A DNA stretch of 64,000 nucleotides from Candidatus Leptofilum gracile (GTDB lineage Bacteria > Chloroflexota > Anaerolineae > Promineifilales > Promineifilaceae): the NCBI GenBank assembly GCA_016713825.1, contig JADJOJ010000003.1, positions 228,733-292,732 of the forward strand, given 5' to 3'. Every line of letters starts with the position of its first letter. Position 1 is the first letter of the stretch. The notes beneath the pieces were generated by a model. That model made no database searches and had not been told where the DNA came from. It saw only the letters and a list, made by a program, of their open reading frames with translations. The position numbers were made by a program, and so were the translations under genes. Below are positions 4,398 to 57,842 of the stretch, in pieces.

Positions 4398-4581
4398 TTT
4401 GCGGCGCTGGCCTAACAGGCAAACGTGAAAAAAGCCTGCCGGAAATCATCCGGCAGGCTTTTTGTTTTTACGGATGCATAAAAATTGGGGCTCTTTGGGA
4501 ATTTATGGGGTTGACAGCCCGTGAAACGTAAAACGTGATGCGTGACCAGGGGGGCGGGCCCCAAAAAAAATCGCCGAAAAA

Positions 4582-5805
<1,224 letters not shown>

Positions 5806-10338: not shown

Positions 10339-10985
10339 TTCGGGTAATTATTGCGGAAGATCACCATCTGGTGCGCCAGGGCATTTGTGCCCTGCTAGAA
10401 CAAAGTGGCACGGTTCAGGTGGTGGCTGAAGCCGCCACCGGCGAAGAAGCGGTGCAGCTAACAGAAACCCACAAGCCCGATGTGGTGGTGATGGATCTTT
10501 CCATGCCCCGCCTGGATGGGGTACAGGCGTCTGAACGCATTTTAGAGATGGATTTGCCCACGCAAATCATCATCCTTTCGATGCATGCCGACACCACCAT
10601 GGTGCAGCAGCTGCTGCGGCGCGGCGTAAAGGGATACCTGCTGAAGGATGCCGTCACCGAGGAGCTGCTGCTGGCGATCCAGTCGGTGAGCCAGGGCAAG
10701 CTGTTTCTTAGCCCCACCCTCTCTGATTCGGTGATGAGCTTGCTGCTTGCCCCACCAGATGCCCAGGCCGAGAGCATGGCCGATTTGCTGACCCCCCGTG
10801 AACGCGAAGTGTTGCAGCTGGTAGCCGAGGGGCACACCAACGGCGGTATTGCCGAAATTTTGGGCATCAGCGTGAAAACGGTAGAAAAACATCGCGCCAA
10901 CGTGATGAGCAAGCTGGAAGTGAAGGATTTGGCGTCGTTGGTGCGGGAAGGCATCAAGCAGGGGCTCATCTTTCTGGATGAATGA
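10335..10985 (+). CDS. NarL/LuxR-family response regulator
   Basis: 216 aa. ATGA overlap with the kinase stop. The receiver is canonical (AEDH, DVVVMDLSMP, KGYLLK). GerE-type HTH: LTPREREVLQLVAEGHTNGGIAEILGISVKTVEKHRANVMSKL. Confidence 0.9.
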   Translation: MIRVIIAEDHHLVRQGICALLEQSGTVQVVAEAATGEEAVQLTETHKPDVVVMDLSMPRLDGVQASERILEMDLPTQIIILSMHADTTMVQQLLRRGVKGYLLKDAVTEELLLAIQSVSQGKLFLSPTLSDSVMSLLLAPPDAQAESMADLLTPREREVLQLVAEGHTNGGIAEILGISVKTVEKHRANVMSKLEVKDLASLVREGIKQGLIFLDE

Positions 10986-11560: not shown

Positions 11561-11707
11561 CCAAATTTTTGTTCAGGGTAGGGTATTTCCCCATCAGAAG
11601 GTAGGAAACCTCCCCATGTACGGAACGGCCGTTCCCCCCCATACTAAAGCTATATGCTGAAAACAACCCCACAAAACTCAAAAACAAAATCAAAGGAGAC
11701 TTGGAAA

Positions 11708-12409
11708 ATGATTCGAATTTTGCTCGCTCATCCCTCTCGTTTGGTATCGGATTCGCTGCGCACGGCCCTGGACGGTCAAGATGATGTGTATGTCGTCGGT
11801 TGTGCCACAACTGCAGAGGAGCTTCATTTCTTGCTGCCGCACGGCAATATTGTGTTATTGGGCGCAGAATTAGACGGCACAACTGCCTTCGACATGCTCG
11901 ACGAAATTCGTACCACCCACCCAGAAACCAAAGTGCTGGTTATGGGTGTAGAAGAACAGCCTGCGCTCATTATGCGTTACGTAGAAGCTGGGGCAGCGGG
12001 CTACATTTTGCAAGATGAATCGGTAAACGACATGGTAGAGAAGTTGCAGGCCGCGCATGAGGAAAAAGCGATCGTTTCGCCGTCGATGGCTGCGGCGATG
12101 ATGGATCGCCTGACCCACCTGGCCAACCTGGAAACGCCGCTGGCCTACATCCAAGCGCGAGGTACGCAGCTAGATGAGCTGACCAATCGTGAAGAAGAGG
12201 TGCTGACGCTTATCAATGAAGGCTGCACCAACCAGGAGATTGCCGACCAGCTTATCATTGAGTGCGGCACCGTGAAGAACCATGTGCACAATATTCTCAA
12301 AAAGCTAGATGTCAGCAATCGGCACGAAGCCGCTTCGATTTACCAGGTTCATACCCACGCGGCGGCCGATTCGGGAGCCCATTTGGGCGTGGCAATGGCG
12401 ACCTTGTAG
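11708..12409 (+). CDS. LuxR-family regulator with degenerate (pseudo-)receiver domain
   Basis: 233 aa from ATG 11708, with AAAGGAG at 11692-11698. C-terminal GerE HTH: LTNREEEVLTLINEGCTNQEIADQLIIECGTVKNHVHNILKKL. In the receiver fold, the acidic pair is replaced by AH, the phospho-Asp position reads LLGAELDG, the T/S position is G, and the K position is Q. Confidence 0.8.
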   Translation: MIRILLAHPSRLVSDSLRTALDGQDDVYVVGCATTAEELHFLLPHGNIVLLGAELDGTTAFDMLDEIRTTHPETKVLVMGVEEQPALIMRYVEAGAAGYILQDESVNDMVEKLQAAHEEKAIVSPSMAAAMMDRLTHLANLETPLAYIQARGTQLDELTNREEEVLTLINEGCTNQEIADQLIIECGTVKNHVHNILKKLDVSNRHEAASIYQVHTHAAADSGAHLGVAMATL

Positions 12410-13509: not shown

Positions 13510-16485
13510 TTAGCTGTGTACGGCCGTTTGGTAAATCCGGTGCAGCGCTTCCTCTAGCAGCTCAATGCGAATCGGTTTGCTGATGTAATCATCCATCCCC
13601 AGTTCAAGGTAATTTTCCCGGTCGCCTTTGAGCGCATTGGCCGTCATGGCGATGATGCGTGGGCGTTGTGCGGCGGGCCAATCGGCCAAAATGCGTTGGG
13701 TGGCCACCACACCATCCATCTCTGGCATTTGCACATCCATGAGCACCACATCGTACCGCTGGCGGCGCAAGGCTACCAGCACCTCTTCACCATTGGCGGC
13801 CACGTCGGCCCGGTACCCCATGCGTTCTAGCATGCGCAGCGCCACTTTTTGGTTCACCATGTTGTCTTCGGCCAGCAAGATGCGCAGGGGTGATTCTTTA
13901 CCGGCGTTGGCATTGATGCCGCTGGTTAGTGGGGGCCGACTGTTGGCGGCGCTGCTGCCACCGTTTTGGGCAAGCACGTCGTGGAGAATCATTTTTAACT
14001 GGTACTGCTTGATCGGTTTGGTAATTTGCCAGGCGATGTTCAGTTCAGCGCCTTCGGCTTGTTTCATGCCCAGCGAGGAGAGCAAGATGAGGGGGAGCTT
14101 CGCATTTTGTTGCTGGCTGCGAATTTGGCGGGCCAGGCTAATGCCATCTTCGTGAGGCATTTGCATATCCAGGATGACCAGATCGAAGGGGGGGTGGCTG
14201 ACTATTTTTTGCATTGCGGCGGCGGCCGAAACGGCCGTTTCGGCCTGCATTCCCCATTTTTGCGTGTGCCGAGACACAATCAGGCAGTTGGTTTTGTTGT
14301 CGTCTACAATCAGCACTCGTTTGCCTGCCAGCGGGTTGGCTTGCTCGTGGGATTGTTCGCTGGCGGCCTCCGCAAAGGGTAGCTTGAGCAGTTCAACATC
14401 AAAATGAAACGTTGAGCCTTGCCCCGGCTGGCTCTCTGCCCAGATGCGGCCGCCCATGAGTTCTACCAAATTTTTGCAAATGACCAGCCCCAGGCCCGTG
14501 CCGCCAAATTGGCGCGTGGTCGAGGCATCTGCCTGGCTAAACGCCTGAAACAGCTTGTCTAGCCGGTCGGTGGGGATGCCAATGCCGGTGTCGTTGATGG
14601 CAAAATGGAGCCGGATGTTGTCGTTGTGGCTGGCCACGTGCCGCACAAACACAGACACTTCGCCCTGGTGGGTAAATTTGACGGCATTGCCCAGCAGGTT
14701 TACCAACACCTGGCGCAGCCGGGTTACATCGCCCATGACCATTGTGGGCACGTCATCGGCGATGTAGTAGAGCAGTTCCAACGTTTTTTCGGCGGCTTTG
14801 GCCGAAACCAGATCGAGCGCTTCTTCCAGGCAAATGTTCAGGTCGAACGGGCTTTCTTCCAGGGTTAGCTGCCCGGCTTCAATTTTGGAATAGTCGAGGA
14901 TGTCGTTGATGAGGATAAGCAGGTTGTTGCTGCTGCCGCGAATGGTGCGCACAAACTCTTCTTGTTCTTCGTCTAGTTGGGTGTCATCTAGCAGGGTGGT
15001 CATGCCGATGACGGCATTGAGGGGGGTGCGGATCTCATGGCTCATGTTGGCCAGGAAGGCGCTTTTGGCGCGAGCGGCCGTTTCGGCTTCGTCTTTGGCT
15101 TGTTGCAACGCTTCTTTGACCCGCTCGTTGCCAATGGCCATGCCCAGCAGTTCCCCTATTTGCCGCAGCGCTTCCAGGCGCACGGGCAGGCGAGATGGGT
15201 TGGGTGCTGTGTACAAAAACAGGGTGCCCAACACTTCGTCTAGATGCATGATGGGCACAATGTAATGGCCGTGGTTGGTCATGGTTTCTGGTTGGCGTTG
15301 GTGACGAATGTCTGAAAAACAGCCATCAGAAACGAGCAGCTGCCCGGTAACGGCCGTTTGCCCGCAAAGGCATTCACCCAGGGCGATGGTTTGTTCTGCC
15401 TGTAAAAATTGTGGAGACAGATCCCCCCGGGTGGTAAAAAGGTGCAGCAGGTTGCTGTCTGGCTGGCGCAAGAAAATGCCAGCTTTTTGCGCCAGCTGCA
15501 TGCCATCCATGTTCATTAGCTCATCGAGTACGGCGTTGAATCTGGCTTGTAACGGCCGTTGCTCTTGCAAAATATGCCCCACTTTGGCTTTAACCTCGGC
15601 CGCTTCTTTGGCCAGGGCTTGCTGCTCTTCGCGGGCGACCTCGGCCGAAATGTCGCGCTGAATAGAGATGTAGCCCAGCAGGTCGCCGTCATCGTGCCAA
15701 ATGGGGGCGTTGATGCTTTGTGCCCAGTACCCCCCGCCATTTTCTGAGGTGGCCTGCCCCATCAGCTTGAGCGGTATGCCTGCTTTGCGCTGATTGAGCA
15801 CCCGGCTTTCCCACGTTTTGCCCTGTTTTAAGGTTTGCCACATTTGCTGGTAATATGCCGCTGGCATTTGCCCACTGCTTAAAATGTGCGGGTTTTGGCC
15901 GATTGCTTCTTCGGCAGGCCAGCCGGTAATTCTGGTAAAAGCGGGGTTTACATATTCAATCTGGCCATCGGGATCGGTAATAAAGATCGCTTCGGAGATG
16001 GCTTCGATGGCCATGACCAGGGGTTTCATTTTCTGTTCGATTCGCTTGCGTTCCTGAATTTCTTGCTCTAGCTGGTTGGCGTACCGCTGCAGCGCAGCTT
16101 CGGTTCTTTTTTGGCGCAGGTGCAGGCGTACGCGGGCCAGCAGTTCCGCTTTTTCGATGGGCTTAACCATGTAGTCGTGGGCCCCACCCCGGAACGCCTG
16201 TACTTTGTCTTCTACCTGGGCCATGGCCGAGATCATGATAATCTTCATTTGGGACAGGGTGATGTTGCTCTGGACGAGTTCTAGCAGCTCGAAACCGTTT
16301 AGCACTGGCATCATAATGTCTAGCAGCAGCAGGTCTATATCGGGATGTTCTTCTAGGATGATGAGGGCATCTACGCCGGAAACGGCCGTAAATACCGCAT
16401 ACCCCTCCTGTTCGAGCAACCGCTTCATCACAAAGCGGGCCGCTTCTTCATCATCAACAACAAGAATTTTTGCTTGATCATGCAT
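13510..16485 (-). CDS. Hybrid sensor histidine kinase (REC-PAS-GAF-HisKA-HATPase-REC-REC)
   Basis: 991 aa. N-terminal receiver ([15 protein letters not shown]). PAS segment ([21 protein letters not shown]). H-box [18 protein letters not shown]. Two C-terminal receivers ([18 protein letters not shown]). Confidence 0.9.
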
Positions 16486-43650: not shown

Positions 43651-44901
43651 TTAATTGTCTGGCGCGGTGACGATGCCGTGCGTGGCGGCCCATTGGCGGA
43701 GGTCACGGCCGTTTAGCACCGCGCCCATCAAATCGGGGAAAAGCTGTGGCGTGCAGGCAAAAGCAGGTACGCCATGATTCACCAGCTCCTGCGCCAGCTG
43801 CCGATCGAAGCGGGGGGCGCCCTGGTCGTTCAGCGCCAGCAGGGCCACGATTTCTACGCCATCATCCACCAGCGTGGCCACGCGGCGGATCATGTTTTCC
43901 TTGTCGCCCCCCTCGAATAAATCAGTCAGCAGCACCAGCACGGTGTCGCGGGGGCGGGTGACGAGCTGCTGGCAGTAGCCCAGCGCCCGGTCGATGTTGG
44001 TGCCGCCGCCCAGCTTCAGGCCAAACAGCAGCTCCACCGGATCGTCGAGCTGGTCGGTTAAATCGACCACGTTCGTATCGAACAGCACCAGTTTAGTGGC
44101 CAGCGCCGGAATCGAGGCCATCACAGAGGCGAAAATGGAGCCGTAAACCACGGAAGTGGCCATCGAGCCGCTGCTGTCCAGAGCAATGATGACATCGCGC
44201 AGGGCGGAGCGTTTACGGCCGTATCCCACCAACGTCTCTGGCACCACCGTCTTTTGCTCCACCTGATAATGCTTCAAATTAGCGTGCACCGTGCGCCCCC
44301 AGTTGATCTCCTTGTGGCGCGGGCGGCGGGTGCGCGTGGCCCGGTTCAGGCTGCCCGAAATCGCCTGCTCCAGCGGATAGCGCAATTGCTCCAGCAGCTG
44401 TTCCACCACTTTGCGCACCACTTCTTTGGCCGTCTCCTTCGTTTTGCTGGGCATCACCCGGCGCAGCGCCAGCAGATTGGCCACCAGCTGCACGTCTGGC
44501 TCAATCGCTGCCAAAAATTCTGGCTGGCTGAGCAGGCGGCGCAGGTTGAGCTTGCTCAGCGCGTCGTGTTGCATCACCTGCACCACCTCGGCGGGGAAGT
44601 AGGTGCGGATGTCGCCCAGCCAGCGGGCGATGTCCGGGTTGGAGTCGCTGAGATCGCCGCCGGTGCTGTCACCGTACAGCGCCTCCAGCGCCTCATCCAT
44701 CGCCTGGTCCTGCTCGGAGAGGCCGGTTTGCGATTGCTGCTCGTCGCCTTGCCCGTCGCCCTCGCCGGGCTGGGCTTCTTGCGCCGCTTCCTCCTGCTCC
44801 GTTTGGCCCAGAATGAGCCGCCAGCGACGGCCGTTTTCATCCAAACCGTCAGCGGCGGAGAAGAAGGGTTGGTAAGTAAATTTGCTTTCTGTTTCGTTCA
44901 T
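43651..44901 (-). CDS. VWA-domain protein (CoxE-like), last gene of the SWIM/AAA/VWA operon
   Basis: 416 aa. Acidic low-complexity N-terminal third. MIDAS motif VIIALDSSGSM, then the Rossmann-like VWA fold. Confidence 0.8.
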   Translation of the reverse strand: MNETESKFTYQPFFSAADGLDENGRRWRLILGQTEQEEAAQEAQPGEGDGQGDEQQSQTGLSEQDQAMDEALEALYGDSTGGDLSDSNPDIARWLGDIRTYFPAEVVQVMQHDALSKLNLRRLLSQPEFLAAIEPDVQLVANLLALRRVMPSKTKETAKEVVRKVVEQLLEQLRYPLEQAISGSLNRATRTRRPRHKEINWGRTVHANLKHYQVEQKTVVPETLVGYGRKRSALRDVIIALDSSGSMATSVVYGSIFASVMASIPALATKLVLFDTNVVDLTDQLDDPVELLFGLKLGGGTNIDRALGYCQQLVTRPRDTVLVLLTDLFEGGDKENMIRRVATLVDDGVEIVALLALNDQGAPRFDRQLAQELVNHGVPAFACTPQLFPDLMGAVLNGRDLRQWAATHGIVTAPDN

Positions 44902-44936
44902 AGTGCCACCAGTAGGGGCGACCCGCCGGGTCGCCC

Positions 44937-47204
44937 CTACGATTGAATACCTAACAATTTTGCCACCAGCGGCAGCACTTTGTCTGCCTGAACTTCGTCA
45001 AAGGTGGGGTGGGTGATGGGCTGATTGGCAGCGGTACGGCCGTATCGCACGCGCTCCATGAGCTGCTGGCGGGCGGCGTCGGAGAAGGTGCTGAAGGTGC
45101 GGCGCAGCAGGGGCAGGATGGTTTGGAATCGTTCCGCATCGAGCTGCATCACCCAGCCGTCGAGCAGCTGCCACAGGGCCTGATCGTGCAGTACCAGCAG
45201 GCCGCTGCCCTTGAGAAAGCCCTCGATCCAGAACGCCATCTGGGTGAGCTGATTGGCGCTGTTGGTTGCGCCAGACAGCACCCGTTCCAGTCGCGTTGTG
45301 GCTTCGGCTGGTTGGAAAACGGCCGTATCCAACAACACCCGCGTCGCTTTCCCCGCCAACAAACCATGAATCCCCGGCTGATCGGCCAACTGGCGCAGCG
45401 TGGCTTCCCAGGCGGCCAGATGGTCTTCGTTTTGCTGGGTGGCGATGGTGGTGTGAACGGCCGTTACCCGGTCCAGCATCTCAGCCGCGGCGTCATTGTC
45501 CAGGCTGGCGCAGGTGCTGGGCAGGCCAATGCAGATGCGCGTCACCAGCGTATCGACGACGTGGCGCACCAGTTCGGGATTGGTCTGGCGCACGTCGCCG
45601 TAGCGCAGGACGCGGGCCAGCGGCAGCAGCGCATCCATCATGTGCGGCACGTCGCTGCTGACGGCCGCCTGCGCTTCGATGCGGCCCAGCAAGCTCAGGA
45701 CCAGCTCCGGCAAATCGGCCAGCAGCGCCTGGTCCAGCAGATGGGTGAGCGTGGGCAAATCCTGGGCTTGTTCGGCTTGATGGGTGGCGAATTGGGTAAC
45801 GGCCGTTTCCACCGTATTGCCCCAGACGCCCGCCTCAATCAGCCGCACCACAAATTCCGGCTTCCAGGCCAGCTGCCACACCTCCTGGTAGGTGCCTGAC
45901 TGCCCCCGAATCGGGGTGATTTTGCCCCAGGGCACCTTGAGCAGATTGAGCCGGTGCAGCAGCTGGCTGCGCTCGCGGTGGCTGTCGGTGCGTAAATCCA
46001 GGTTGAGGGTGATTGTTTCCGGCTCCGGGCGCAGGCGCAGGCGGCGCTGCTGCTGGTGCAGGTCGCGCTGGAGCGGAATCATGGGCGAGTCGGGCGGCAC
46101 CGCGCCCATCCGCTCGCCGACGATGAGCCGCTTTTGGATGAGCTGCATCGGCGCGGCATCGCCAAAACAGAGCACCGTTTGGGTCGCTTCGTTCAGCTCT
46201 GGCAGGCCGGGGGCGGGCAAGCCGCGCATGGCAGCCAGCGCTTCGGCCAGCCGCACCGCCTCGATGATGTGGGCCGACGAGGCATCCAAATCCTGGTCGC
46301 GCAGCAGCTGGGCAACGTGGCTGAGCCAGTGAATGCTCATCTGCGTCGGCGTCGCTTGCTGCTGCCCCATCTGCCACAAATGATGATACCAGCCGGGCGA
46401 GCGAATGCCTGCGCCGTAGCCGGTGGTGGCCGAGATTCGGCCGTAGGTCCACGGCACCCAGGCTGTTTCCACGTCCACGCCGGGCAGATTGGCCAGCAAG
46501 GCGTCATCGGCGGCGGCATTGTCCAAATGGCACAGGGCAGGTGCGTGCCACGCCCCGCACACCACGGCGATGCGCTCACACCCTTCGGCGCGCGCCTGGC
46601 GGATAGCGTGGCGCATGTGGGCTTCGCGCTGCTGGGCGATTTGCCCAGATTGGGCATGGGCCGCTGCCATTTTCTCATCCATCGCTGGCGGCAGGGTTTC
46701 TTCCGCAGCGGAGCGCATGGCGGTCATTAGCTCCAGAATGCCGGTGAACAGGTCGTCCTGGTTTTGGCGCTGCTCGATGGCGGCGTTCCACCAGAGTTCG
46801 TAATCGTGGTGGTCGGCTGCTTGAGCGATTTGGTGGAAGACGGCCGTATCCGGCATCAGCGGTCGAGCAACCGCAGCCAGCATCACCGACTGCGGCAAAT
46901 CAAAAAAGCGGGTGACGATGCCCTGCTGCACCCCGTACCGCAGCGCCTGAAATTCCGGCGAAAACTCGGCAAACGGATACGAGCCTGCCGCATCCGGCTT
47001 GTCGGGCCGATACACCAACAGGGCAATCGGCGGCTCCATATCTTCATGTCCCAGCCAGGGAATGATCTCGTTGGCATCGGCTGGCCCTTCCACCAAAATG
47101 GCGTCCGGCTTCAGCCCGTGCAGCGCCGCCAGCAGCGCCCGCGCCGAACCCGGCCCGTGGTGGCGGATGGGGAAGAGGTGGAGGAAAGGGGGTGGTTCGA
47201 TCAT
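44937..47204 (-). CDS. Large conserved hypothetical protein (DUF5682-like)
   Basis: 755 aa from ATG 47204. The ORF-track N-terminal extension is encoded by the repeat hairpin. I recognised no catalytic motif. Size and operon position match the large protein that accompanies MoxR/VWA/SWIM genes (family assignment from memory, unverified). Confidence 0.6.
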   Translation of the reverse strand: MIEPPPFLHLFPIRHHGPGSARALLAALHGLKPDAILVEGPADANEIIPWLGHEDMEPPIALLVYRPDKPDAAGSYPFAEFSPEFQALRYGVQQGIVTRFFDLPQSVMLAAVARPLMPDTAVFHQIAQAADHHDYELWWNAAIEQRQNQDDLFTGILELMTAMRSAAEETLPPAMDEKMAAAHAQSGQIAQQREAHMRHAIRQARAEGCERIAVVCGAWHAPALCHLDNAAADDALLANLPGVDVETAWVPWTYGRISATTGYGAGIRSPGWYHHLWQMGQQQATPTQMSIHWLSHVAQLLRDQDLDASSAHIIEAVRLAEALAAMRGLPAPGLPELNEATQTVLCFGDAAPMQLIQKRLIVGERMGAVPPDSPMIPLQRDLHQQQRRLRLRPEPETITLNLDLRTDSHRERSQLLHRLNLLKVPWGKITPIRGQSGTYQEVWQLAWKPEFVVRLIEAGVWGNTVETAVTQFATHQAEQAQDLPTLTHLLDQALLADLPELVLSLLGRIEAQAAVSSDVPHMMDALLPLARVLRYGDVRQTNPELVRHVVDTLVTRICIGLPSTCASLDNDAAAEMLDRVTAVHTTIATQQNEDHLAAWEATLRQLADQPGIHGLLAGKATRVLLDTAVFQPAEATTRLERVLSGATNSANQLTQMAFWIEGFLKGSGLLVLHDQALWQLLDGWVMQLDAERFQTILPLLRRTFSTFSDAARQQLMERVRYGRTAANQPITHPTFDEVQADKVLPLVAKLLGIQS

Positions 47205-47214
47205 GGTTTTTTTA

Positions 47215-47310
47215 GTGACAAGGTGACCTGGTGACAAGGTGAAGGGGTGAAGGGGTGAAGGGGTGAATTTGCTTTTCACCCGTTCACCCTTTCACCCGCT
47301 CACCCGCTCA
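47215..47310. repeat. Hairpin with 8-nt periodic arms (GGTGAAGG x3-4, loop, TTCACCCN x4) inside the operon
   Basis: GTGACAAGGTGACCTGGTGACAAGGTGAAGGGGTGAAGGGGTGAAGGGGTGAA tttgctt TTCACCCGTTCACCCTTTCACCCGCTCACCCGCTCA. It fills the spacer between the AAA+ stop (47308) and the next gene's start (47204). Confidence 0.85.
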
Positions 47311-48387
47311 TACAAGCGCCCGACACGCCTGGTACAAATCCCCCCAGCCGTCCCGTTCGCGGACGATGGTTTCCAGGTATTCACGCCAGATGACGGTGTC
47401 GTGGATGGGGTCTTTGACGATGGCTCCGGTGAGGCTGGCGGCCATGTCGTTGGCGCGCAAAACGCCATCGCCAAAGTGGCCCGCCAGCGCCAGCCCGCTG
47501 TTGATAACGGAAATCGCTTCGGCGGTGCTGAGCGTGCTGCTGGGCGATTTGAGCTTCGCTTTGCCATTTTCCGTCACGCCCTGGCGCAGCTCGCGGAAGA
47601 TGGTGACGACGCGGCGAATTTCGGCCAGGGCGGGCGGTTCGGCGGGCAGTTCCAGCGCCTGGCCCAGACTGTGCACCCGCTGCTGCACGATGGTCACTTC
47701 TTCGGCGGCGGTGGCGGGCAGGGGCAGGACGACGGTGTTGAAGCGGCGCTTGAGGGCGCTGCTGAGGTCGTTGACGCCCCGGTCGCGGTCGTTGGCGGTG
47801 GCGATGACGTTGAATCCTTTAATCGCCTGCACCTCCTGGTTGAGCTCCGGGATGGGCAGCAGCTTTTCGGACAGGATGGTGATGAGGGCGTCCTGCACAT
47901 CGGCGGGGATGCGGGTGAGCTCTTCGACGCGGGCGATACGCCCGTTGCGCATAGCCAGCATGAGTGGGCTAGGTACCAGGGCTTCGGCCGTGGGGCCTTT
48001 GGCGATGAGGCTGGCATAGTTCCAGCCGTAGCGAATCGCTTCTTCGCTGGTTCCGGCGGTGCCTTGCACCAGCAGGGTGGAGTCGCCGGAAATGGCGGCG
48101 GCGAGGTGCTCGGAGACCCAGGTTTTGCCGGTGCCGGGGATGCCCATCAGCAGCAGGGCGCGGTCGGTGGTGAGGGTGGCGATGGCGATTTCGATGAGAC
48201 GGCCGTTGCCAATATATTTCGGCACAATCTCGAAGCCGTTGTCTAGCGTGCCGCCCAAAATGTAGGTGGCCACCGCCCAGGGGGAGAGCCGCCAGTTGGC
48301 GGGGCGGGGGCGGCGGTCGGCCTCTTCTAGTTCGTAAAGCTCGGCGGCAAACTGCTGCTCGGCGTGGGCGCGTAAAATTGTTTCCAT
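47308..48387 (-). CDS. MoxR-type AAA+ ATPase (AAA_5-like)
   Basis: 359 aa. GAGGA RBS. Walker A LLMGIPGTGKTW, Walker B-like RIARVEELTR, sensor region FNVIATANDRDRG. Confidence 0.85.
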   Translation of the reverse strand: METILRAHAEQQFAAELYELEEADRRPRPANWRLSPWAVATYILGGTLDNGFEIVPKYIGNGRLIEIAIATLTTDRALLLMGIPGTGKTWVSEHLAAAISGDSTLLVQGTAGTSEEAIRYGWNYASLIAKGPTAEALVPSPLMLAMRNGRIARVEELTRIPADVQDALITILSEKLLPIPELNQEVQAIKGFNVIATANDRDRGVNDLSSALKRRFNTVVLPLPATAAEEVTIVQQRVHSLGQALELPAEPPALAEIRRVVTIFRELRQGVTENGKAKLKSPSSTLSTAEAISVINSGLALAGHFGDGVLRANDMAASLTGAIVKDPIHDTVIWREYLETIVRERDGWGDLYQACRALV

Positions 48388-50009
48388 AGTTCTTCCTCAA
48401 TTTTCACCGCAGAGAGCGCGGAGGGCGAAAAAAAAAAAAAAAAAACCTCCGCGCCCCGCGCCGCCCCCCGGGGCAAAAAAAAATAATCAACATTCAGACG
48501 CTGGATGTCTGCCAAAAGGGTGCGGCGGAGGTGGAGGGTTTGGCAGAGGTGGGTGACGGTTTTTTGCCAGGCGCTGTTGAGGCCGGGGATGGTGGTGAGT
48601 TGGGAAACGGCCGTATCTGCCAACACCGGATCGCACTTTTGGCCAAAGCGGCGCAATAGATTGTTCAGCGTGGGGTCGGGCGCTTTGTCGGCGGCGGTTT
48701 GTAAATGCTGCGCGAACAAATCGAGCCAAAATTGGCCCAGTGCGGCGGGCCAGGGCTGCTGCCAATGCTGTAAAAAGATAAAGAGCGGGTCAGCGCGGTG
48801 CAAGCTGGTAGCTTGCTGCGCCGCTTGCTGCACCAGCGCTGCACAGCGGTCGGGCGGCAGCACGGGCACCAGCCGCCCGGCTGAACTGTTGAACGCGCTG
48901 GCGAGGATGATCGCTTCAGCCCAGGCGGCGTCGTTTTGGCGAATGGCGGCGGTGCTGAAGGCGCTGATGAGCGTACGCGGCCAGCCGCTGTTCAGCGCGG
49001 CGTTGACGATTTCTTGCGGCGTTTTTTGCCACGTTTCGGTCCAATGGTTGAGCGGCACCCGGTTGATGAGCTGGCTGAGCAGGCGGGATTGCACCTTCGC
49101 TTTTTCCTCTGGTTTGAAGGTGGGAATGCCGTCGCGCAGCATGGCGGGGCTGATCTCCTGGGGCAGGCGGATGGTGATGGCGCGTTCGTGGTGGGGCGTC
49201 CAGCTGAGCACGCCAGCGACGTGCTGCGTCAGGCGCTGGGCCAGGCGGGATTGCGGCAGTTTGGCCAGCAGATCGGCGGCGGCCTGGCGCACGAGATGGG
49301 TGCGATCGTCTAGAGCGGCTTCTAAAAATGGCTCATCGGCCTGGCTTAAATTGACGTCCAGCAGTTTGATTGCCTGGTGGCGGACGAGGCCGCTGTTGTT
49401 TTTCCAGGTGTGTTCCAGCAGTTGGCGGCCTAGCTGAGGTTGCGTGGCGCGGAGTTGGCGGAGCAGGGCGTGGCGCTGGACGGGTACGGCCGTTTCCCAT
49501 TCCGCCAACAAGCCTGCCCAGCTGTCGATGGCGGGGGAAGCGTAATGCCATTCTGGGTTTTGCCCGGCCAGCCAGCGGCCGCGTTGGCCGAGCACTGCCA
49601 AAATAGCGGGGCGAGATTGCGACAGCTTTTTCCCTTTTTCCAGCAGGCTGGGCAGCAAAATTTCGGGCACGCGGTGGCCAGTTTGGGCCAGCGCTGCCAG
49701 CATCTCTGGCAGCAGCACCGCCTGCGACCCTTCCATGAGCAAATCGAGCTGGTAGGCGATGTGCGCCGGGCAGACGGGCAAATCGGGCCGGGTTGCGGTG
49801 GGGGTGGTGGGTGCGTTTTGCCGGGGCTGCCAGCCAGTTTGCTGGTGCAGGGCCACGGTGCCGGCCACGGCCAGCAGGCTGGCGGCGTCTTCCTGCGGCG
49901 GCAGCTGGGTGAGCAGTTGGCCAAGGGCGTTGCGACCCGGCAAGTTGGGTAATTCGGCCCGGTTGGTGCCCAGTAGGGCGGTTTTGATGGTGTCGTTCCA
50001 GGCGGTCAT
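48327..50009 (-). CDS. Conserved hypothetical protein (DUF5691-like); 3' end uncertain
   Basis: ATG 50009 overlaps the SWIM gene stop (ATGA). It is leucine-rich and helical-repeat-like throughout. The last ~55 codons read through the A18/GC low-complexity segment and into the AAA+ gene, so the true stop is probably near 48490 and has been lost or shifted. Confidence 0.55.
   Translation of the reverse strand: MTAWNDTIKTALLGTNRAELPNLPGRNALGQLLTQLPPQEDAASLLAVAGTVALHQQTGWQPRQNAPTTPTATRPDLPVCPAHIAYQLDLLMEGSQAVLLPEMLAALAQTGHRVPEILLPSLLEKGKKLSQSRPAILAVLGQRGRWLAGQNPEWHYASPAIDSWAGLLAEWETAVPVQRHALLRQLRATQPQLGRQLLEHTWKNNSGLVRHQAIKLLDVNLSQADEPFLEAALDDRTHLVRQAAADLLAKLPQSRLAQRLTQHVAGVLSWTPHHERAITIRLPQEISPAMLRDGIPTFKPEEKAKVQSRLLSQLINRVPLNHWTETWQKTPQEIVNAALNSGWPRTLISAFSTAAIRQNDAAWAEAIILASAFNSSAGRLVPVLPPDRCAALVQQAAQQATSLHRADPLFIFLQHWQQPWPAALGQFWLDLFAQHLQTAADKAPDPTLNNLLRRFGQKCDPVLADTAVSQLTTIPGLNSAWQKTVTHLCQTLHLRRTLLADIQRLNVDYFFLPRGAARGAEVFFFFFSPSALSAVKIEEELWKQFYAPTPSSSLPPSFTN
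48405..48485. repeat. Low-complexity segment: GCGCGGAGG-CG-A18-CCTCCGCGC hairpin, then a GC run, then A9
   Basis: A18 at 48428-48445. GCGCGGAGG/CCTCCGCGC arms flank it. A9 at 48475-48483. It lies between the DUF5691-like body and the AAA+ start and is translated as FFFFF in the ORF track. Confidence 0.9.
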
Positions 50010-51292
50010 TTGGCACCTCGCCAGATGAGGATGTCTTGCCAGGTTTGCTGGGCGTGGACGGTGAATGGGGTGAGGCAACGGCCGTTCCACACGCCAAAAA
50101 TTGTCAGGTCAAAACGGCCGCCTGCCAGCGCCAGCAGGTGCCAGCCGTGGCTAAACTTGTCGGGCAGGGGCAGCCAGGTGCCGCTGGGGTCTTCTAGCTG
50201 CCAGCCGGATTCGGTTGGTTTGGGCTGGACGTTTGGCAGCAGCATGGGGAAATGTGCCAACCACGGATTTGCGGCCAGGGAACGGCCGTACGCCTGGGTC
50301 GCGGTGCGAATCGAAGCAAAACCAACCGGGGCAATCGCTGGGGCGGCAATCGCTTGCAGCTGGCCGTGGCGGACGGCAATTTGGGGCCAGCCGCTGGGGG
50401 CAAACTGGAGTGCGCCGCGCCAGGCGCTGCCGCTGGGCAGCCAACTGCCTTCGGGCACGGCGCTGCGGCTCAGATCGATCAGTTGGGCGGTGATCTGGGT
50501 TTCTTGCCCCCAGAGCCAGGTGGTGTGGCGGGTCTGGCTGCCAGCTGGCTCTTGCTGCCGCCCCAGCACCAGCCAGTTGTCGCTGATGGGTGGGTTTTCT
50601 GTGGAAGTGGGCAGCCAGCCAACGGCCGTTTGCAAATCGGCCTGGGTGGTGGCGGGCAGCTGCTCAAACTGGCGGAACCCTTGAATGATGAGGTAAAGAC
50701 GGCCGATTTCTTGCAGCGTCTGTTCCGGCCAGTCGGGCTGGGTTTTGGGCAGCTGGGCCAGGTGGCGCACCGTTTGGGCCAGGGGCAGCGCCTGGGTATC
50801 GACGAGGCGGTGGGCCATGGTGTCCCAATACGCTTGAGGGCGTTCGGGCAGGCGGGCCAGGCCGTGGCGCACCATGTCTAGCAGCCACAGTTCCAGGGCA
50901 TCGAGCCCGGTTTTTAGCTGGGGCAGGTTGTGGGGTTGGGAACGGCCGTTGGGCCGCTGCTGCTTGATCTGCTCTCGTTTGGCCCAGGTGGCGAGGCGGC
51001 GATTGGGTGGCTGGGGAGTGAATTTGTGGGCGTGCTGCTGCCACAGTTGCAGCAGGGCCAGGCTGTGGCGGCAGGGGGCTTTGCGGCTGTTGCAGGTGCA
51101 GAGGTAGCTGAAGGTGGGCAGGTAGACGGCCGTTTCTGTGGTTTGGTTACGGCCGTTGGGGTGAATGCCCCAAACGGTGTCGTCTGCGTGATGCAGGGCG
51201 ATCCATTTTTGCGGCTCCGCCAGGCCACGCCCGGCGCGGAGGGTAAATTGATCAGGTGCCAGACCCAATATTTGTTCAGTGGTCCAATTCAT
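50006..51292 (-). CDS. SWIM zinc-finger protein, first gene of the operon
   Basis: 428 aa. CxCx(6)CxH signature in YLCTCNSRKAPCRHSLALL. Confidence 0.75.
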   Translation of the reverse strand: MNWTTEQILGLAPDQFTLRAGRGLAEPQKWIALHHADDTVWGIHPNGRNQTTETAVYLPTFSYLCTCNSRKAPCRHSLALLQLWQQHAHKFTPQPPNRRLATWAKREQIKQQRPNGRSQPHNLPQLKTGLDALELWLLDMVRHGLARLPERPQAYWDTMAHRLVDTQALPLAQTVRHLAQLPKTQPDWPEQTLQEIGRLYLIIQGFRQFEQLPATTQADLQTAVGWLPTSTENPPISDNWLVLGRQQEPAGSQTRHTTWLWGQETQITAQLIDLSRSAVPEGSWLPSGSAWRGALQFAPSGWPQIAVRHGQLQAIAAPAIAPVGFASIRTATQAYGRSLAANPWLAHFPMLLPNVQPKPTESGWQLEDPSGTWLPLPDKFSHGWHLLALAGGRFDLTIFGVWNGRCLTPFTVHAQQTWQDILIWRGAK

Positions 51293-51499
51293 TCGCTACA
51301 AAATCCAGGTGGTGAAGCCGCGCTTCACCCGAAGGCCAGTTCGTTCTGTTTACGCGGGCAGCGTGGGAACGTTGCAGTGGCCATGTGGTTTGTTGGACAC
51401 GGGTTTGGCGGTTGGGTCACATTTTGGCTGAGCACAACGAATTGGCGTAATTAACGAATTTACCGTTCGTCTGGGGTCGGTTTTGGGTAAAATGGGGGC

Positions 51500-52078
51500 A
51501 TGCGTGAAAAGATTCGTTTGTTTATTGCGATTGAGTTGCCGGAGGGGGTGAAGGATGCGCTGGCGGAAACGGCCGTTTCCCTGACTAAAAACGTCCCCGC
51601 TGGGGCGATTCGCTGGGTGGGCCGTGAGCAGATGCACCTGACGCTGCGTTTTTTGGGGGATACGGCCGTTGCCCAACTGCCCGCCCTGCACGATGAACTG
51701 ACCCAGCTGGCTGCGCGCCACCAACCGTTTCAGCTGCGGCTGCGCGGCGTGGGGGCGTTCCCCAACGCCAAACGGCCGCGCGTGGTGTGGGCGGGGCTGG
51801 CGGGGGAGTTGGCCCGGCTGCAAACGATGCAGGCGGCGTTGGAAGATCGGGTGGTGGCGTTGGGCTGGGCGCGGGAGAAACGGCCGTTCAACCCGCATCT
51901 AACGTTGGGGCGGGTGAAGGATGTCGGGCCGGCGCGGGGCTTAAATTGGGGGGTAGATTTGGCGGAAGTTGGGTTTGGGGTAACGGCCGTTCAGCTGGTG
52001 CAGAGTGAATTACGGCCGTCTGGTCCACTGTACACCGTGCGCCATCAGGTGGTGCTTAATCAATATGCAGGTGCATGA
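51500..52078 (+). CDS. thpR: RNA 2',3'-cyclic phosphodiesterase (2H family, LigT/ThpR)
   Basis: 192 aa. Two HxT motifs: MHLTLRFLG and NPHLTLGR. Confidence 0.88.
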   Translation: MREKIRLFIAIELPEGVKDALAETAVSLTKNVPAGAIRWVGREQMHLTLRFLGDTAVAQLPALHDELTQLAARHQPFQLRLRGVGAFPNAKRPRVVWAGLAGELARLQTMQAALEDRVVALGWAREKRPFNPHLTLGRVKDVGPARGLNWGVDLAEVGFGVTAVQLVQSELRPSGPLYTVRHQVVLNQYAGA

Positions 52079-52913: not shown

Positions 52914-54678
52914 GTGAGTGAATTTGACGTTAATAGATCACAGCAGACTGACAAAAGTACCACTGGTCGCTGGGTCTTATCCCATCTTTCACAGCACAAG
53001 CTGCTTATTGCGGGCATGTTCATTGGCGCGTTTGGCAATGCGGCGCTGGCGGCGGTAGTGCCGGTGTTGATTGGGCTTGCTTTTGATGCGGCGCTGGCTT
53101 CTCCGGCGGATATGCGCACCATTGGTTTGATGGCGCTGGGGGTGATTGGCAGCCAGGCGGTGCGGGCGGTGTTGCAGTTGGGGCGCAACTTTTCTAGCGC
53201 GGTGATGGGGGAGCGGCTGGAGCGGGATATGCGCGAGGAGCTGTACGCGAGCCTGCTAGGCAAGAGCACCGCTTTTCATGATTTGCAGCCGGTGGGCGAC
53301 ACAATGGCCCGGGCGACCAACGACGTGCATGAAGTAAATTTGCTGATGAATCCGGGGGTGAACCTGGTGGCGGGTTCGGCTAATTTTATGATTATGCCGC
53401 TGCTGGTCGCGCCGAGTTATCACCCGCAGTTGGCGGCGGCTCCGCTGTTTTTCATCATCACCTACATTTTGGCGGTGATACGTTATTTGCGGGTGCTGCA
53501 AGGGATTGCGGATCGGGTGCGGCGGGCGTTTGGGGCTTTGAACGGCCGTCTCGCCGAAGCGATCGACGGCATTGAGCTGGTAAAAAGCACGGCGCAGGAA
53601 ACCCAGGAAATTGGCTTGTTCAACGAAAATGCCACCGGCTACCGGGATGCGGCGGTGGAGCAGGGCAAAATCGAAGCCCGCTTTTTGCCGCTGCTGCTGC
53701 TGGGCATTACCCAGGGGCTGGGCTTTATGCATGCGCTCTACCTGTTTAACCTGGGGCAGATTGCGGTGGGTGACGTGGTGGGCTACATGGGGCTGCTGGC
53801 GCTGTTTGGCTTTCCTACGTTTATCTCGCTGCTGGCGTATTCGCGGGTGTCGTTGGGGTTGGCGGGGGCGCGGCGCATTTTGGAGTTGATGAACGCGGAG
53901 ACTTTGCTGGATGAAAATGCGGCGGGATATCAGGGGGAAATTACCGGGGCGGTGCAGTTTGACCAGGTGACGTTTGGTTATGTGACGGATTCCCCACGTG
54001 CTGCAAGCTGTTGATTTTGCCATCGAGCCGGGGCAGACGGTGGCCATTGTGGGGCAGACGGGGGCGGGCAAGAGCACGTTGGCCAAGTTGGTTAACCGGA
54101 CGTATGATGTGGGAAACGGCCGTCTCCTCATAGACGGCATCGACGTGCGCAACTGGAACCTGGCGGCGCTGCGCCAACAAATTTCTATCATCGAGCAAGA
54201 TATCTTTTTATTCTCGCGCACGGTGGGGGAGAACATCGCTTTTGGCTGCCCCGACGCTACGCAGGCGATGATTGAGGAGGCGGCCAAAGCGGCCCAGGCG
54301 CACGACTTCATCCGCAATTTTAAGGATGGGTACCAGACGGTGATTGGCGAGCGGGGCGTGACGCTTTCTGGCGGGCAGCGGCAGCGGCTGGCGCTGGCGC
54401 GGGCGTTCCTCACGCGGCCGCGCATCCTCATTTTGGATGATTCCACCAGTGCGGTAGACAGCGCCACGGAGGACCAAATTCAGCAGGCGATTGTGCGGGC
54501 GGCGGCCCACCAAACCACGATTTTAATCACCCACCGGCTGTCGCAGATTCGCTGGGCAGACAAGGTGGTGGTGTTGCGCAAGGGACGCATGGAGGCCGTG
54601 GGCAGTCACGATGAGCTGATGGTGCGCTCGGTGGCGTATCGGCGCATTTTTGAGCAGTACGAGGCGATTGAGGAATAG
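52914..54678 (+). pseudogene. ABC exporter, fused permease/ATPase, split by one frame shift at a C4 run
   Basis: The TMD ORF 52914-54014 ends ...[20 protein letters not shown]. The NBD ORF 53998-54678 starts within ...[27 protein letters not shown]. Removing one C from CCCC (53992-53995) joins them as [14 protein letters not shown]. Signature LSGGQRQR, Walker [10 protein letters not shown]. Confidence 0.8.
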
Positions 54679-55613: not shown

Positions 55614-57842
55614 TTACCAGCGCTGCCGATGGGCCTCAATGACGTTGGGCAGCGATTCTAGCTTTTGCAGCAGCCAGTTGAGCTGCTCCAAACTATTCAC
55701 CTCTACCATGAGCGAAATGGTCATGATGTTGCCCACAGAGGTGGTTTTGGTTTTGGGTGTGTTGATGCGCTGCCCGCGCAGGATGGCCACAATTTCTTCG
55801 ATGATGTTGGGCCGCCGGTACGCTTTGAGCACAATGGGGATGGGGTAAACGGCCGAATCATCCCCCCACTCCACGGCAATCAACCGCTCTGGTTCTGACG
55901 TGTTTTCGATCTGCTTGCAGTCGGCGCGGTGAATGGTGACGCCCTGGCCCCGGGTGATGAAGCCGGTGATGGGCTCGGGGGGGATGGGCTGGCAGCATTT
56001 AGCCATGCGGGTATGCAGGCCGCTAACGCCATTGATGGTGAGCCCTTGCTTTTTGGGGGGAGCTTGCAGGAGTAACGGCCGTAATTCATCGTCCGGATGC
56101 AGCGTTTTTTCCATCAGGGCAATTGCCCCGCTAAGCTGACGGCTTTGAATGTCGCCAAAACCCACTTTAGCCAGAAACTGCTCTTCGTCGTCAAACTTTA
56201 GCGACAGGGCGATGTCGGAGACGGTGTACGTGTCGGCCAGCCCCAGGCGGCGCAGTTCCCGCTCTACCACTTCGCGCCCTTGCAAAATGTTTTGCTCCCG
56301 CTCCTGGTTGCGGAACCATTGCCGAATTTTGCTGCGGGTGCGGGCGCTGCCGGTGTAGCCCAGGCTGCCGTTCATCCAATCACGGCTGGGGCCGCCCCGG
56401 TTGGTGGTGAGAATGGAAACGCGCTCGCCCGATTTGAGCAGGTAATCCAGGCTGACCATTTTGCCATTTACTCGTGCGCCTCGGCAGCGGTGGCCCACTT
56501 CGGTGTGGATGGCGTAGGCAAAGTCGATGGGGGTAGAGCCAGCTGGCAGGTCGATCACATCTCCTTTGGGGGTGAAGAGGTAGATGCGGTCTGCCAAAAT
56601 TTCATTTTCCAGCAAATCATCGTCGTCATCCTCGCGGGAGTCGTCTTGCAGGCTGGCCAGCAGTTCGCGCAGGTTGTCGATCCGTTTTTTAACAGAACTG
56701 GCAACGCGGCCACCTTCTTCTTTGTAGGCCCAATGGGCGGCGACGCCCCTTTCTGCTTCATCGTGCATGCGGCGGGTGCGAATTTGCACTTCCAGATTTT
56801 CACCGGTGTTGGTGTCGATAACGGCCGTATGCAGCGATTGGTACCCGTTGGCCTTCGGTGCCGCAATGTAATCGTCGAATTCGCGGGGGATGGGTTGCCA
56901 CAGGCTGTGCACCAACCCAAGCGCCTGGTAGCACAAATGGCGATCTTCTTCTTCTTTTTCTTTGCTGCTTTTTTGCTCGTACGCCTCTTTGTTATTTGGC
57001 TCCAAAATGACACGCAGCGCCTGGATGTCAAAAATATTGTCAAAATCGAGCTGTTTGCGCACCATTTTGCGGTAAATGGAGTAGATATGCTTGGAGCGGC
57101 CAGAGACAGAGCCTCTTAAGCCGCTGTCGCGAATGGCGCGTTCTAGCTTTTTTACGGCCTCTTCGATATTTTCCATCCGTTCTGCCCGGCGGGCGGCCAG
57201 CTGGCTGGCAATCTCTTTATACTTTTCAGGTTGCAGGTAGCGAAAGGCCAAATCTTCCAGCTCCCATTTGAGCTGCCAGATGCCCAGCCGGTTGGCCAGC
57301 GGTGCGTAAATGTTCATTGCCTCGTTGGCGATGATGCGGCGCTGCTCTAGCGGCAGGTTGCTGGCTTTGCGCAAATCTTGCAAACAGTCGGCCATGCGGA
57401 TGAGGATAACGCGGATATCGCCTTCGATGATGGCCAGGACGGCGCGGCGCACGCCTTCCAGCGTTTTGCGGTCGGCTTCAGGGTCGCGGTGGCGCTGGTA
57501 TTGGGCTTCGCTGGCGTAGGCGTACAGGTGCTCCAAGCCTTCGATGAGGGCGGCGGGTTCTTCGCCAAAATATTTACGGATGCTCGCTACGGTTTGGCCA
57601 GTGTGGGGCAGCAGGCTGTCGTGCAGCATGCTGGCAACGAGGGTGGGCGGATCAACTCCGAGCTGGCTCATGGTTTGGGTGACGCCCAAATCATGTTCGA
57701 TATACAGTTCGCCGGACTCTCGCTGACGGCCGTTGTGGCTGCTTTTGGCGAATTCATAGGCGCGGCGTACCTGCTCGGCCGTTTGCCCATTGGGCAAACT
57801 GTTGAGAAGTTCCGTGATGGAGACGAGAGATATTTGGGTCAT
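55614..57842 (-). CDS. relA: Bifunctional (p)ppGpp synthetase/hydrolase (RelA/SpoT homologue)
   Basis: 742 aa. N-terminal HD hydrolase, RelA_SpoT synthetase region (HSLWQPIPREFDDYIAAPKANGYQSLHT), TGS (IYLFTPKGDVIDLPAGSTPIDFAYAIH), and C-terminal ACT-like domain. Confidence 0.92.
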   Translation of the reverse strand: MTQISLVSITELLNSLPNGQTAEQVRRAYEFAKSSHNGRQRESGELYIEHDLGVTQTMSQLGVDPPTLVASMLHDSLLPHTGQTVASIRKYFGEEPAALIEGLEHLYAYASEAQYQRHRDPEADRKTLEGVRRAVLAIIEGDIRVILIRMADCLQDLRKASNLPLEQRRIIANEAMNIYAPLANRLGIWQLKWELEDLAFRYLQPEKYKEIASQLAARRAERMENIEEAVKKLERAIRDSGLRGSVSGRSKHIYSIYRKMVRKQLDFDNIFDIQALRVILEPNNKEAYEQKSSKEKEEEDRHLCYQALGLVHSLWQPIPREFDDYIAAPKANGYQSLHTAVIDTNTGENLEVQIRTRRMHDEAERGVAAHWAYKEEGGRVASSVKKRIDNLRELLASLQDDSREDDDDDLLENEILADRIYLFTPKGDVIDLPAGSTPIDFAYAIHTEVGHRCRGARVNGKMVSLDYLLKSGERVSILTTNRGGPSRDWMNGSLGYTGSARTRSKIRQWFRNQEREQNILQGREVVERELRRLGLADTYTVSDIALSLKFDDEEQFLAKVGFGDIQSRQLSGAIALMEKTLHPDDELRPLLLQAPPKKQGLTINGVSGLHTRMAKCCQPIPPEPITGFITRGQGVTIHRADCKQIENTSEPERLIAVEWGDDSAVYPIPIVLKAYRRPNIIEEIVAILRGQRINTPKTKTTSVGNIMTISLMVEVNSLEQLNWLLQKLESLPNVIEAHRQRW

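Follow-up and report, generated by a model that had tools for sequence, protein, structure and literature searches.

In several described bacterial systems an AAA_5 ATPase of the MoxR type is paired with a VWA protein that bears a metal-ion-dependent adhesion site (MIDAS). In eukaryotes, midasin/Rea1 combines an AAA_5 ring with a MIDAS domain and strips assembly factors from pre-60S ribosomes. The characterised bacterial pairs (NorQ/NorD, CoxD/CoxE, CbbQ/CbbO and RavA/ViaA) are encoded beside a client enzyme, and all those known to us act as maturation chaperones (PMC3893208, PMC13036017); the NorQ/NorD complex has been solved and its mechanism described (PMC13036017). MoxR-vWA cores are also used in conflict systems, for which the variable effector domains on the vWA protein have been stressed (Kaur et al. 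2020, PMC7159879). YehL, one of seven MoxR subfamilies, is listed only (PMC3893208). Here we analyse a member of this subfamily encoded in a 64,000-nucleotide stretch of the Candidatus Leptofilum gracile genome (contig JADJOJ010000003.1, positions 228,733 to 292,732; hereafter the window). Its gene lies in an operon with those of a CoxE-like VWA protein, a SWIM zinc-finger protein and two large proteins of the families DUF5691 and DUF5682. What sets the operon apart from the characterised systems is that its MoxR-VWA engine comes with three further conserved subunits and that no client is linked to it. An initial annotation, made from the sequence alone, had placed five co-directional minus-strand genes here and had named all five families; the five open reading frames (ORFs) are present and Pfam bears out each assignment. 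The profile searches matched the two large proteins to DUF families only, neither with an established function, and none of the five proteins reached any NCBIfam model. Both the Pfam DUF families and the YehL subfamily had put this gene set on record, and the window operon adds one more member. The literature that we searched gave no function for the operon, in agreement with the initial annotation, and contained no mention of DUF5682, DUF5691, their Pfam accessions or yehLMPQ; in butanol-tolerance and copper-evolution papers, yehQ and yehM appear only as mutated genes.

We examined the conservation of the gene neighbourhood by scanning one genome per species for relatives of DUF5682. The scan gave at least 577 confirmed stretches, from which 79 loci from many phyla were kept, and gene order was scored by tblastn with the five window proteins. 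The five genes were colinear, in the same order and orientation, in 44 of the 56 loci with enough flanking sequence. These colinear loci span Chloroflexota, Cyanobacteria, Acidobacteriota, Planctomycetota, Verrucomicrobiota, Pseudomonadota and Actinomycetota, among others, and the window gene order was also kept in the Rhizobium etli and Fusobacterium loci. Most of the non-colinear loci were cyanobacterial, or were loci in which the two fastest-evolving genes were missed by detection. When all flanking ORFs of the 79 loci were clustered, no sixth gene family recurred beside the block. The flanks also differed between the window and the nearest relative fetched (L082, with a SWIM protein 83% identical to that of the window), while the block stayed intact. 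In the window, the neighbours are LigT, an ABC transporter, RelA/SpoT, UbiA, an M50 peptidase and Trk. No client enzyme (nor, cox, cbb or gvp) is among them, as the initial annotation had noted, and none is conserved in the 79 related loci. The SWIM and DUF5691 genes appear to be translationally coupled: the stop codon of the first and the start codon of the second overlap as ATGA at 50009-50006, an overlap that had been pointed out before and that we read again in the sequence. The family is large, DUF5682 alone forming 4279 clusters at 50% identity (E up to 1e-3) in a library of 1.84 billion cluster representatives, and nearly all of these proteins are 720-800 aa long. These results show that the five genes are a self-contained, co-inherited unit. 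The operon was found in at least eight phyla among the fetched loci and a relative of it in almost every E. coli genome, which places it among the larger conserved bacterial multi-protein systems that are still without an assigned role.

The resemblance to the E. coli yehLMPQ cluster, which the initial annotation had pointed out, was confirmed. YehL is 41% identical to the window MoxR protein over 351 aa (E 1e-74) and YehM is 28% identical to the window DUF5682 protein; in E. coli K-12, YehP is a VWA_CoxE protein and YehQ a SWIM protein. The two clusters thus share homologous MoxR, DUF5682 and CoxE-like VWA proteins, with a SWIM protein and a large helical protein adjoining, but they differ in gene order and in the identity of the large protein. 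The E. coli order is the DUF4132 protein YehI (1210 aa), MoxR, DUF5682, VWA and SWIM; directly upstream of yehL lie yehI, yehK, the pseudogene yehH and yehF (WGR), and the WGR-domain genes yehF and yehH are absent from the window. The genes for DUF4132, MoxR, DUF5682 and VWA, together with one for a longer SWIM protein, were also found in Bacillus mycoides, Agrobacterium vitis and Iodobacter plasmids. The VWA homologues annotated in E. coli-type and other examined loci are 368-382 aa long. There are two operon types, the window type (SWIM-DUF5691-MoxR-DUF5682-VWA) and a DUF4132 type, since E. coli is without DUF5691 and has the DUF4132 protein YehI in the equivalent role. The window has a MoxR protein of the YehL lineage, DUF5682 next downstream, a VWA protein with an intact MIDAS, and SWIM and DUF5691 upstream, all four of the features that define its type. 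The unit therefore has five components, not four; all five roles are filled in both types, and the large helical protein, DUF5691 or DUF4132, is the variable one. No significant homology between DUF5691 and DUF4132 was found with hhalign (E 0.15), and when the window SWIM and DUF5691 proteins were compared with YehQ and YehI by pairwise BLAST, only the SWIM motif was matched. Window-type and E. coli-type SWIM proteins share only the SWIM domain of ~80 aa (hhalign E 6e-4). The genes yehLMPQ were present in 5353 of 5426 complete E. coli genomes (98.7%), with a median of one copy, almost always on the chromosome. YehQ is 667-668 aa long in wild strains and 614 aa in K-12, and yehH, a pseudogene in K-12, carries a frameshift in strain A22 but is intact in strain CB7286.

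The MoxR protein (359 aa) is the most conserved component. As the initial annotation had read, it has a Walker A motif GIPGTGKT and the VWA protein a MIDAS motif DSSGS, and the key residues of both are conserved in 69 homologous sequences. In the former, at least 90% of the sequences keep Lys88 of Walker A, and there is little or no variation in Walker B (E155-E156), the TAN sensor 1 and the Arg residues. In the VWA protein (416 aa), the conserved MIDAS residues are D242, S244, S246, the Thr of GGGT and D327. The MoxR protein, the motor, thus has all its catalytic motifs, and the VWA protein, its adaptor, an intact MIDAS. The VWA protein has VWA_CoxE and VWA_2 domains only and no fused effector domain. 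The mechanics of a motor working on an adaptor are likely to be shared with NorQ/NorD, CoxD/CoxE, CbbQ/CbbO and RavA/ViaA, which do not, however, have the three extra conserved subunits. The window MoxR also differs from the characterised chaperone ATPases in belonging to the separate YehL subfamily and in falling below the NCBIfam cut-offs for GvpN (38 bits against 267) and MadB (44 bits against 475). Its best sequence relatives in the PDB are the AAA domains of midasin (E 3e-15) and NorQ. Midasin is thus the best solved relative and has the same AAA_5-plus-MIDAS logic, in which a bound protein is pulled off a large complex; unlike the proteins of the operon, it consists of one very long chain that contains six AAA modules. 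The likeness is confined to the AAA_5 domain.

The five components evolve at very different rates. Median identity to the window protein was 74% for MoxR (63 loci), 56% for VWA (64 loci) and 48% for DUF5682, and only 32% for both SWIM (51 loci) and DUF5691. There is thus a conserved engine (MoxR, VWA and DUF5682) and a fast-evolving SWIM/HEAT pair. The same gradient was seen within E. coli when we counted the complete genomes whose copy was 90-95% identical in DNA to the K-12 gene. This band held 35% of the genomes for yehQ and 39% for yehI, compared with 2% for yehL and 0% for the neighbouring control btsS. Pairwise dN/dS (the ratio of nonsynonymous to synonymous divergence) among three E. 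coli strains was 0.02-0.05 for yehL, 0.04-0.09 for yehP, ~0.10 for yehQ, 0.10-0.16 for yehM and ~0.19 for yehI; all the yehI-yehQ genes are under purifying selection. The synonymous divergence (dS) of the yehI-yehQ block was 0.14-0.25, 3-4 times that of the adjacent yehR, yehS and btsR (0.03-0.09; three genomes, L001, L089 and L090).

Both members of the fast-evolving pair have recognisable domains. The SWIM protein (428 aa) has its SWIM domain at the N-terminus, about residues 1-85, and no known domain was matched in the remaining ~340 aa. The CxCx6CxH motif reported by the initial annotation held up across the family: 41 of 42 members match Pfam SWIM, and C65, C67, C74 and H76 are invariant. 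Among 47 DUF5691 members, 22 matched HEAT_2, 16 HEAT and 13 HEAT_EZ (best 1.4e-6), and the best PDB profile matches were artificial HEAT-like alphaRep proteins, centred on residues ~195-270. DUF5691 is accordingly a helical protein with PBS-type HEAT repeats.

The DUF5682 protein (755 aa) was modelled with AlphaFold2 (pLDDT 86, pTM 0.73). The model consists of an N-terminal α/β domain (~1-260), a mixed middle part and a C-terminal α-solenoid (~450-755). A Foldseek search of the PDB with the whole model returned generic α-solenoid proteins only; since these swamped the search, the N-domain was modelled separately (pLDDT 77), giving alternating β-α elements. In 83 N-domain sequences, including those from E. 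coli, Bacillus, Agrobacterium and Iodobacter, nine residues (R14, H15, H16, E39, D102, E144, R193, E194 and G217) never vary, and at least 90% of the sequences have H220. These residues lie in the motifs G-I-R-H-H-G after β1, V-E-G-P after β2, R-E on a long helix and G-A-W-H after a later strand, so that the domain carries two GxxH motifs. The motifs resemble those of TraB/Tiki-type enzymes, a lead that we then tested. The top non-self Pfam family was TraB_PrgY_gumN (PF01963), matched at a lax threshold by 9 of the 83 members (best E 1.8e-4, below the gathering score), and one of the 83 matched the ChaN "Tiki superfamily" family (E 0.069). With Foldseek, the top family-specific match of the N-domain was Bcr135 (3b55/2rad; E 0.07-0.2, probability 0.28-0.6, TM 0.27-0.29), an erythromycin-esterase-like member of the TIKI superfamily. 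Bcr135 and ChaN are placed in that superfamily, which is described by a parallel β-sheet core, a 2His/2Glu site and a conserved basic residue (PMC6254334). The corresponding candidate set in DUF5682 is H15/H16, E39, E144 or E194, R193 and H220, its equivalence to the TIKI site being read from a non-significant alignment. The α/β domain, the two GxxH motifs after β-strands, the His/Glu residues and the Arg on a long helix are possible features in common with TIKI, TraB-PrgY-GumN, erythromycin esterase and ChaN; different are the fusion to a helical region of ~500 aa and the position within a MoxR-VWA operon, and no comparison was significant. The similarity is weak but convergent, and the N-domain probably belongs to the TIKI/TraB/erythromycin-esterase superfamily. 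It is a candidate TIKI/TraB-like hydrolase, possibly a protease. We know of no description of a TIKI-superfamily domain inside a MoxR-VWA operon. The initial annotation had seen no nuclease, toxin or protease signature and had not favoured defence; the latter judgement stands, and the statement on proteases has to be softened for this domain.

We propose, tentatively and at somewhat less than even confidence, that the five genes encode one multi-subunit, ATP-driven remodelling-and-processing machine, the target of which would be encoded elsewhere, since no neighbouring gene is conserved. By analogy with NorQ/NorD and other MoxR-VWA pairs, a MoxR hexamer would grip the VWA protein and pull or twist it, and the MIDAS site of the latter would hold an acidic residue of the target. 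DUF5682 may be the fixed working platform, with its α-solenoid docking the partners and its TIKI/TraB-like N-domain, through the His/Glu/Arg set, hydrolysing or binding the target. The target could be selected by the coupled, fast-evolving SWIM protein and HEAT-repeat DUF5691, acting as a module for recognition or regulation. This target is most likely a protein or a protein-nucleic-acid complex common in bacteria, and a role in stress response or quality control is more likely than one in phage defence. In this proposal the unit, the motifs, the domain-level folds and the gradient of rates are shown by the analyses, and the contacts, the hydrolysis, the nature of the target and the role in the cell are inferred. 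Several points weigh against the proposed machine. The recognition role of SWIM and DUF5691 is drawn only from evolutionary rate and gene coupling. A conflict system would likewise be consistent with the rapid evolution of this pair and with the increased dS of the E. coli block. The TIKI/TraB link is statistically insecure, with Pfam matches under the gathering score in a minority of members and a Foldseek match at E 0.07 and TM 0.29. The alignment of the N-domain with a YbaP-family profile by hhalign was not significant (E 0.2), the motifs aligning in the expected register, and searches of PDB sequences with the full-length and two N-domain profiles of DUF5682 gave only spurious matches (cytochrome b562 fusions and others). 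A local hidden Markov model built from the E. coli YbaP (TraB) family likewise gave no significant match to the N-domain; the YbaP-family profile was shallow because the homologue search had returned only close relatives from Enterobacteriaceae. Finally, some members of the TIKI superfamily bind ligands (ChaN) or are inactive (PMT) and do not cleave.

We also searched for links to defence. In PADLOC-DB v2 there was no match for the SWIM, DUF5682 or VWA proteins; marginal matches were to a P-loop model (IetA, 3e-4) and, for DUF5691, to HEAT-ARM (2e-5). As to a third component of the VMAP, iSTAND, FtsH or β-propeller type, the bpMoxR Pfam model scored 18 bits, under its cut-off of 27. Plasmid copies of the operon are mostly on megaplasmids, chromids or mislabelled chromosomes. 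One DUF4132-type operon, on the mobilizable Iodobacter plasmid pl1 (L086, 14083-17740), lies among insertion sequence (IS) elements and next to a type I restriction-modification system that includes a PDDEXK nuclease gene, the only defence-island-like context seen. A phage origin was considered and rejected: the sole "phage" record is an unverified bacterial fragment with MgsA, polysaccharide deacetylase and DUF5717.

Other explanations of the operon have to be set beside the proposed machine. It could be a classical MoxR-VWA maturation chaperone that inserts a metal or cofactor into an enzyme complex encoded elsewhere, or assembles such a complex, with DUF5682, DUF5691 and SWIM as scaffolds or cofactor carriers and with the DUF5682 His/Glu site binding the metal or cofactor instead of hydrolysing. 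We regard this as possible but doubtful. A MoxR and CoxE-like VWA pair with intact ATPase and MIDAS motifs is what such a chaperone would have, every characterised pair known to us acts in this way, the haem-binding ChaN, whose family one DUF5682 member matched, belongs to the TIKI superfamily, and the E. coli relative has core-genome status. The characterised pairs, however, adjoin their clients, whereas in ~80 loci no client is linked to the operon. The hosts, moreover, are metabolically very different (phototrophs, Fusobacterium, E. coli and Bacillus), so that the client would need to be near-universal. The failure of the window MoxR to reach the GvpN and MadB cut-offs also speaks against a chaperone of the classical kind, and the rapid evolution of two subunits would be odd in a dedicated assembly factor. 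At the other extreme, the genes might be mere neighbours with unrelated functions and form no system. The only support for this is that an interaction has never been demonstrated experimentally, and it is hardly credible in view of the colinearity across many phyla, the retention of the same five roles after rearrangement in the second operon type, the SWIM/DUF5691 stop-start overlap and an intact block between variable flanks.

An anti-phage or conflict system, in which the SWIM and HEAT proteins would sense the invader, the MoxR-VWA engine would activate the response and the TIKI-like domain of DUF5682 would be the effector, is in our view unlikely. It shares with the MoxR-vWA ternary conflict systems (VMAP, iSTAND and others) a MoxR-vWA core with dedicated components, some of them fast-evolving. 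The supposed sensors have diverged much further than the engine, between phyla as well as inside E. coli, and dS of the E. coli block is raised; some copies are on plasmids, one of them in the Iodobacter context described above, and DUF5691 has its weak HEAT-ARM match. Against this, the VWA protein is without the variable effector domains that are the hallmark of those systems and the architecture is uniform; the E. coli relative is core, not mobile, and sits at a single fixed place on the chromosome in 98.7% of genomes; purifying selection acts on all genes (dN/dS at most 0.19); no PADLOC model matches DUF5682, VWA or SWIM; no genuine phage copy occurs in the collection searched; and the survey of Kaur et al. 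(PMC7159879) mentions neither SWIM nor YehL. Defence is therefore ranked below a housekeeping or stress role, on account of the lack of PADLOC models, the core status in E. coli, the lack of a genuine phage copy and the fixed architecture, and it stays a rival because of the fast-evolving pair and the raised dS. A more specific and quite improbable version of the machine would make it a bacterial counterpart of AAA+-coupled extraction proteolysis, as by p97 with SPRTN/Wss1, or of midasin-like stripping. The substrate would then be a protein trapped on DNA or RNA or within a large assembly, recognised by the SWIM zinc finger (plus WGR and DUF4132 in the E. coli type), held at the MIDAS, drawn out by the MoxR ring and cleaved by the TIKI-like domain of DUF5682. 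Hints of nucleic-acid damage come from the literature only and are no more than a lead: a Deinococcus study reports that the radiation/desiccation regulon includes one protein with DUF4132 and one with WGR, and it refers to E. coli molR (yehH) as LexA-regulated. A search for LexA boxes in the E. coli yeh region found none at the operon, and no Cheo-type box (GAAC-N4-GTTC) was found at the window operon, including the intergenic region upstream of the SWIM gene. If the extraction version were true, the operon would represent a widespread and previously unrecognised repair or quality-control pathway.

The existence of the operon will not surprise a specialist. New here are the five components, the two operon types, the division into an engine and a fast-evolving pair, and the candidate site in DUF5682. 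Should the hydrolase reading hold, the operon would provide what is to our knowledge the first case of a TIKI-type enzyme working with a MoxR-VWA engine. The breadth of the family, its presence in K-12 and the lead on a catalytic site make an old question directly testable: the K-12 version is intact save for the upstream pseudogene yehH and can therefore be addressed by standard genetics and biochemistry, and the candidate catalytic site gives named residues to mutate.

Features of the operon and its immediate surroundings in the window (positions counted from the first nucleotide of the window)
Feature	Position	Strand	Remarks
CoxE-like VWA gene	43651-44901	-	Pfam VWA_CoxE (PF05762), E 9e-46
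DUF5682/VWA spacer	44905-44936	-	GC-rich stem-loop beginning inside the DUF5682 stop codon; -29.2 kcal/mol, z -4.3
DUF5682 gene	44937-47204	-	Pfam DUF5682 (PF18934), E 1e-249, profile positions 2-727 of 727
MoxR/DUF5682 spacer	about 47215-47310	-	long hairpin of tandem GCGGGTGA octamers and inverted copies
MoxR AAA+ ATPase gene	47308-48387	-	Pfam AAA_5, E 9e-37
DUF5691/MoxR spacer	48388-48499	-	GC-rich; T9 and T18 runs on the coding strand
DUF5691 gene	48327-50009 as sequenced	-	Pfam DUF5691, E 1e-116
SWIM zinc-finger gene	50006-51292	-	Pfam SWIM, E 2e-3, slightly under gathering score
Divergent intergenic region, SWIM gene to LigT-like phosphoesterase gene	51293-51499	.	ORF layout
LigT-like phosphoesterase (2',5'-RNA ligase) gene	51500-52078	+	directly adjoins the operon

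The SWIM protein is 100% identical to an annotated protein of a Candidatus Promineifilaceae metagenome-assembled genome, and the best relatives of the DUF5682 protein are from Anaerolineae/Chloroflexota. The operon promoter presumably lies in the divergent intergenic region; no sigma-70-like match was found there, and a promoter and terminator scan gave nothing beyond chance.

The initial annotation had described structured spacers on both sides of the ATPase gene. This was borne out for the MoxR/DUF5682 spacer, the hairpin of which is very stable (-55.8 kcal/mol, z -6.8) and the GCGGGTGA octamer repeat of which is confined to this spacer within the window. It was not borne out for 48405-48485 in the DUF5691/MoxR spacer, the fold of which was not significantly more stable than that of shuffled versions (z -1.2). 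In L082 the three gaps of the operon each contain a stem-loop (10545-10680, 11750-11800 and 14070-14140), two of them only modestly stable (z about -2.4), and that in its DUF5691/MoxR gap is a different, strong hairpin. When the DUF5691/MoxR and MoxR/DUF5682 spacers were aligned, their sequences were not kept in L082. All three gaps hold a stem-loop in the window and L082, save for the probably damaged DUF5691/MoxR spacer of the window, the position being kept while the sequence varies. In most other phyla the operon gaps are short. A search of Rfam with the spacers gave only sub-threshold matches to generic miRNA-like hairpins. We rejected the spacers as defining parts of the system, since the two that were aligned differ in sequence in the closest relative; their appearance is that of stem-loops within the operon, specific to the lineage, or of small palindromic insertions.

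The DUF5691/MoxR spacer also bears on the length of DUF5691, which the initial annotation had given as a helical protein of 560 aa. The helical character stood, in the form of the HEAT repeats, and the length is doubtful because the Pfam match covers residues 7-500 and so ends near ~500, and because DUF5691 of L082 is 510 aa long, with a TGA stop at the equivalent point. The last ~57 aa of the window ORF run through the poly-T/GC spacer and then 61 nt into the MoxR gene, and the window has a TGA in both other frames where the stop is expected. The native end of DUF5691 is probably near 48500, and the extra ~57 residues are probably not real but an over-extension, possibly from a sequence error. 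This is made likelier by other signs of local sequence error in the window. The spacer itself, probably of low sequence quality, is the sole site of homopolymers of at least nine bases in the window besides a block at 4560-5805, where long stretches of G or of C make up nearly the whole of ~1.25 kb (705 G, 523 C, 15 A and 3 T). This block is bounded by the perfect inverted repeats GAAACGTAAAACGTGAT and ATCACGTTTTACGTTTC, yields spurious ORFs of 468 aa on both strands, and looks like an assembly or base-calling artefact within a hairpin.

Beyond the operon, a full-length RelA/SpoT (p)ppGpp synthetase/hydrolase gene lies a few kb away at 55614-57842 (minus strand); this gene and the LigT-like gene are also near the operon in L082 and are absent nearby in other phyla. 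At 52914-54678 (plus strand), a fused ABC transporter (transmembrane and ATPase domains) is divided between two ORFs that overlap, whereas L082 has a single gene of 553 aa; the split, which we count among the signs of local sequence error, is either a frameshift or a sequence error. A 12-base palindrome, GAACGGCCGTTC, occurs at positions 11623, 32259, 55328 and 62287 of the window (four copies against 0.66 expected by chance), possibly as a hairpin or regulatory element that recurs in this genome.

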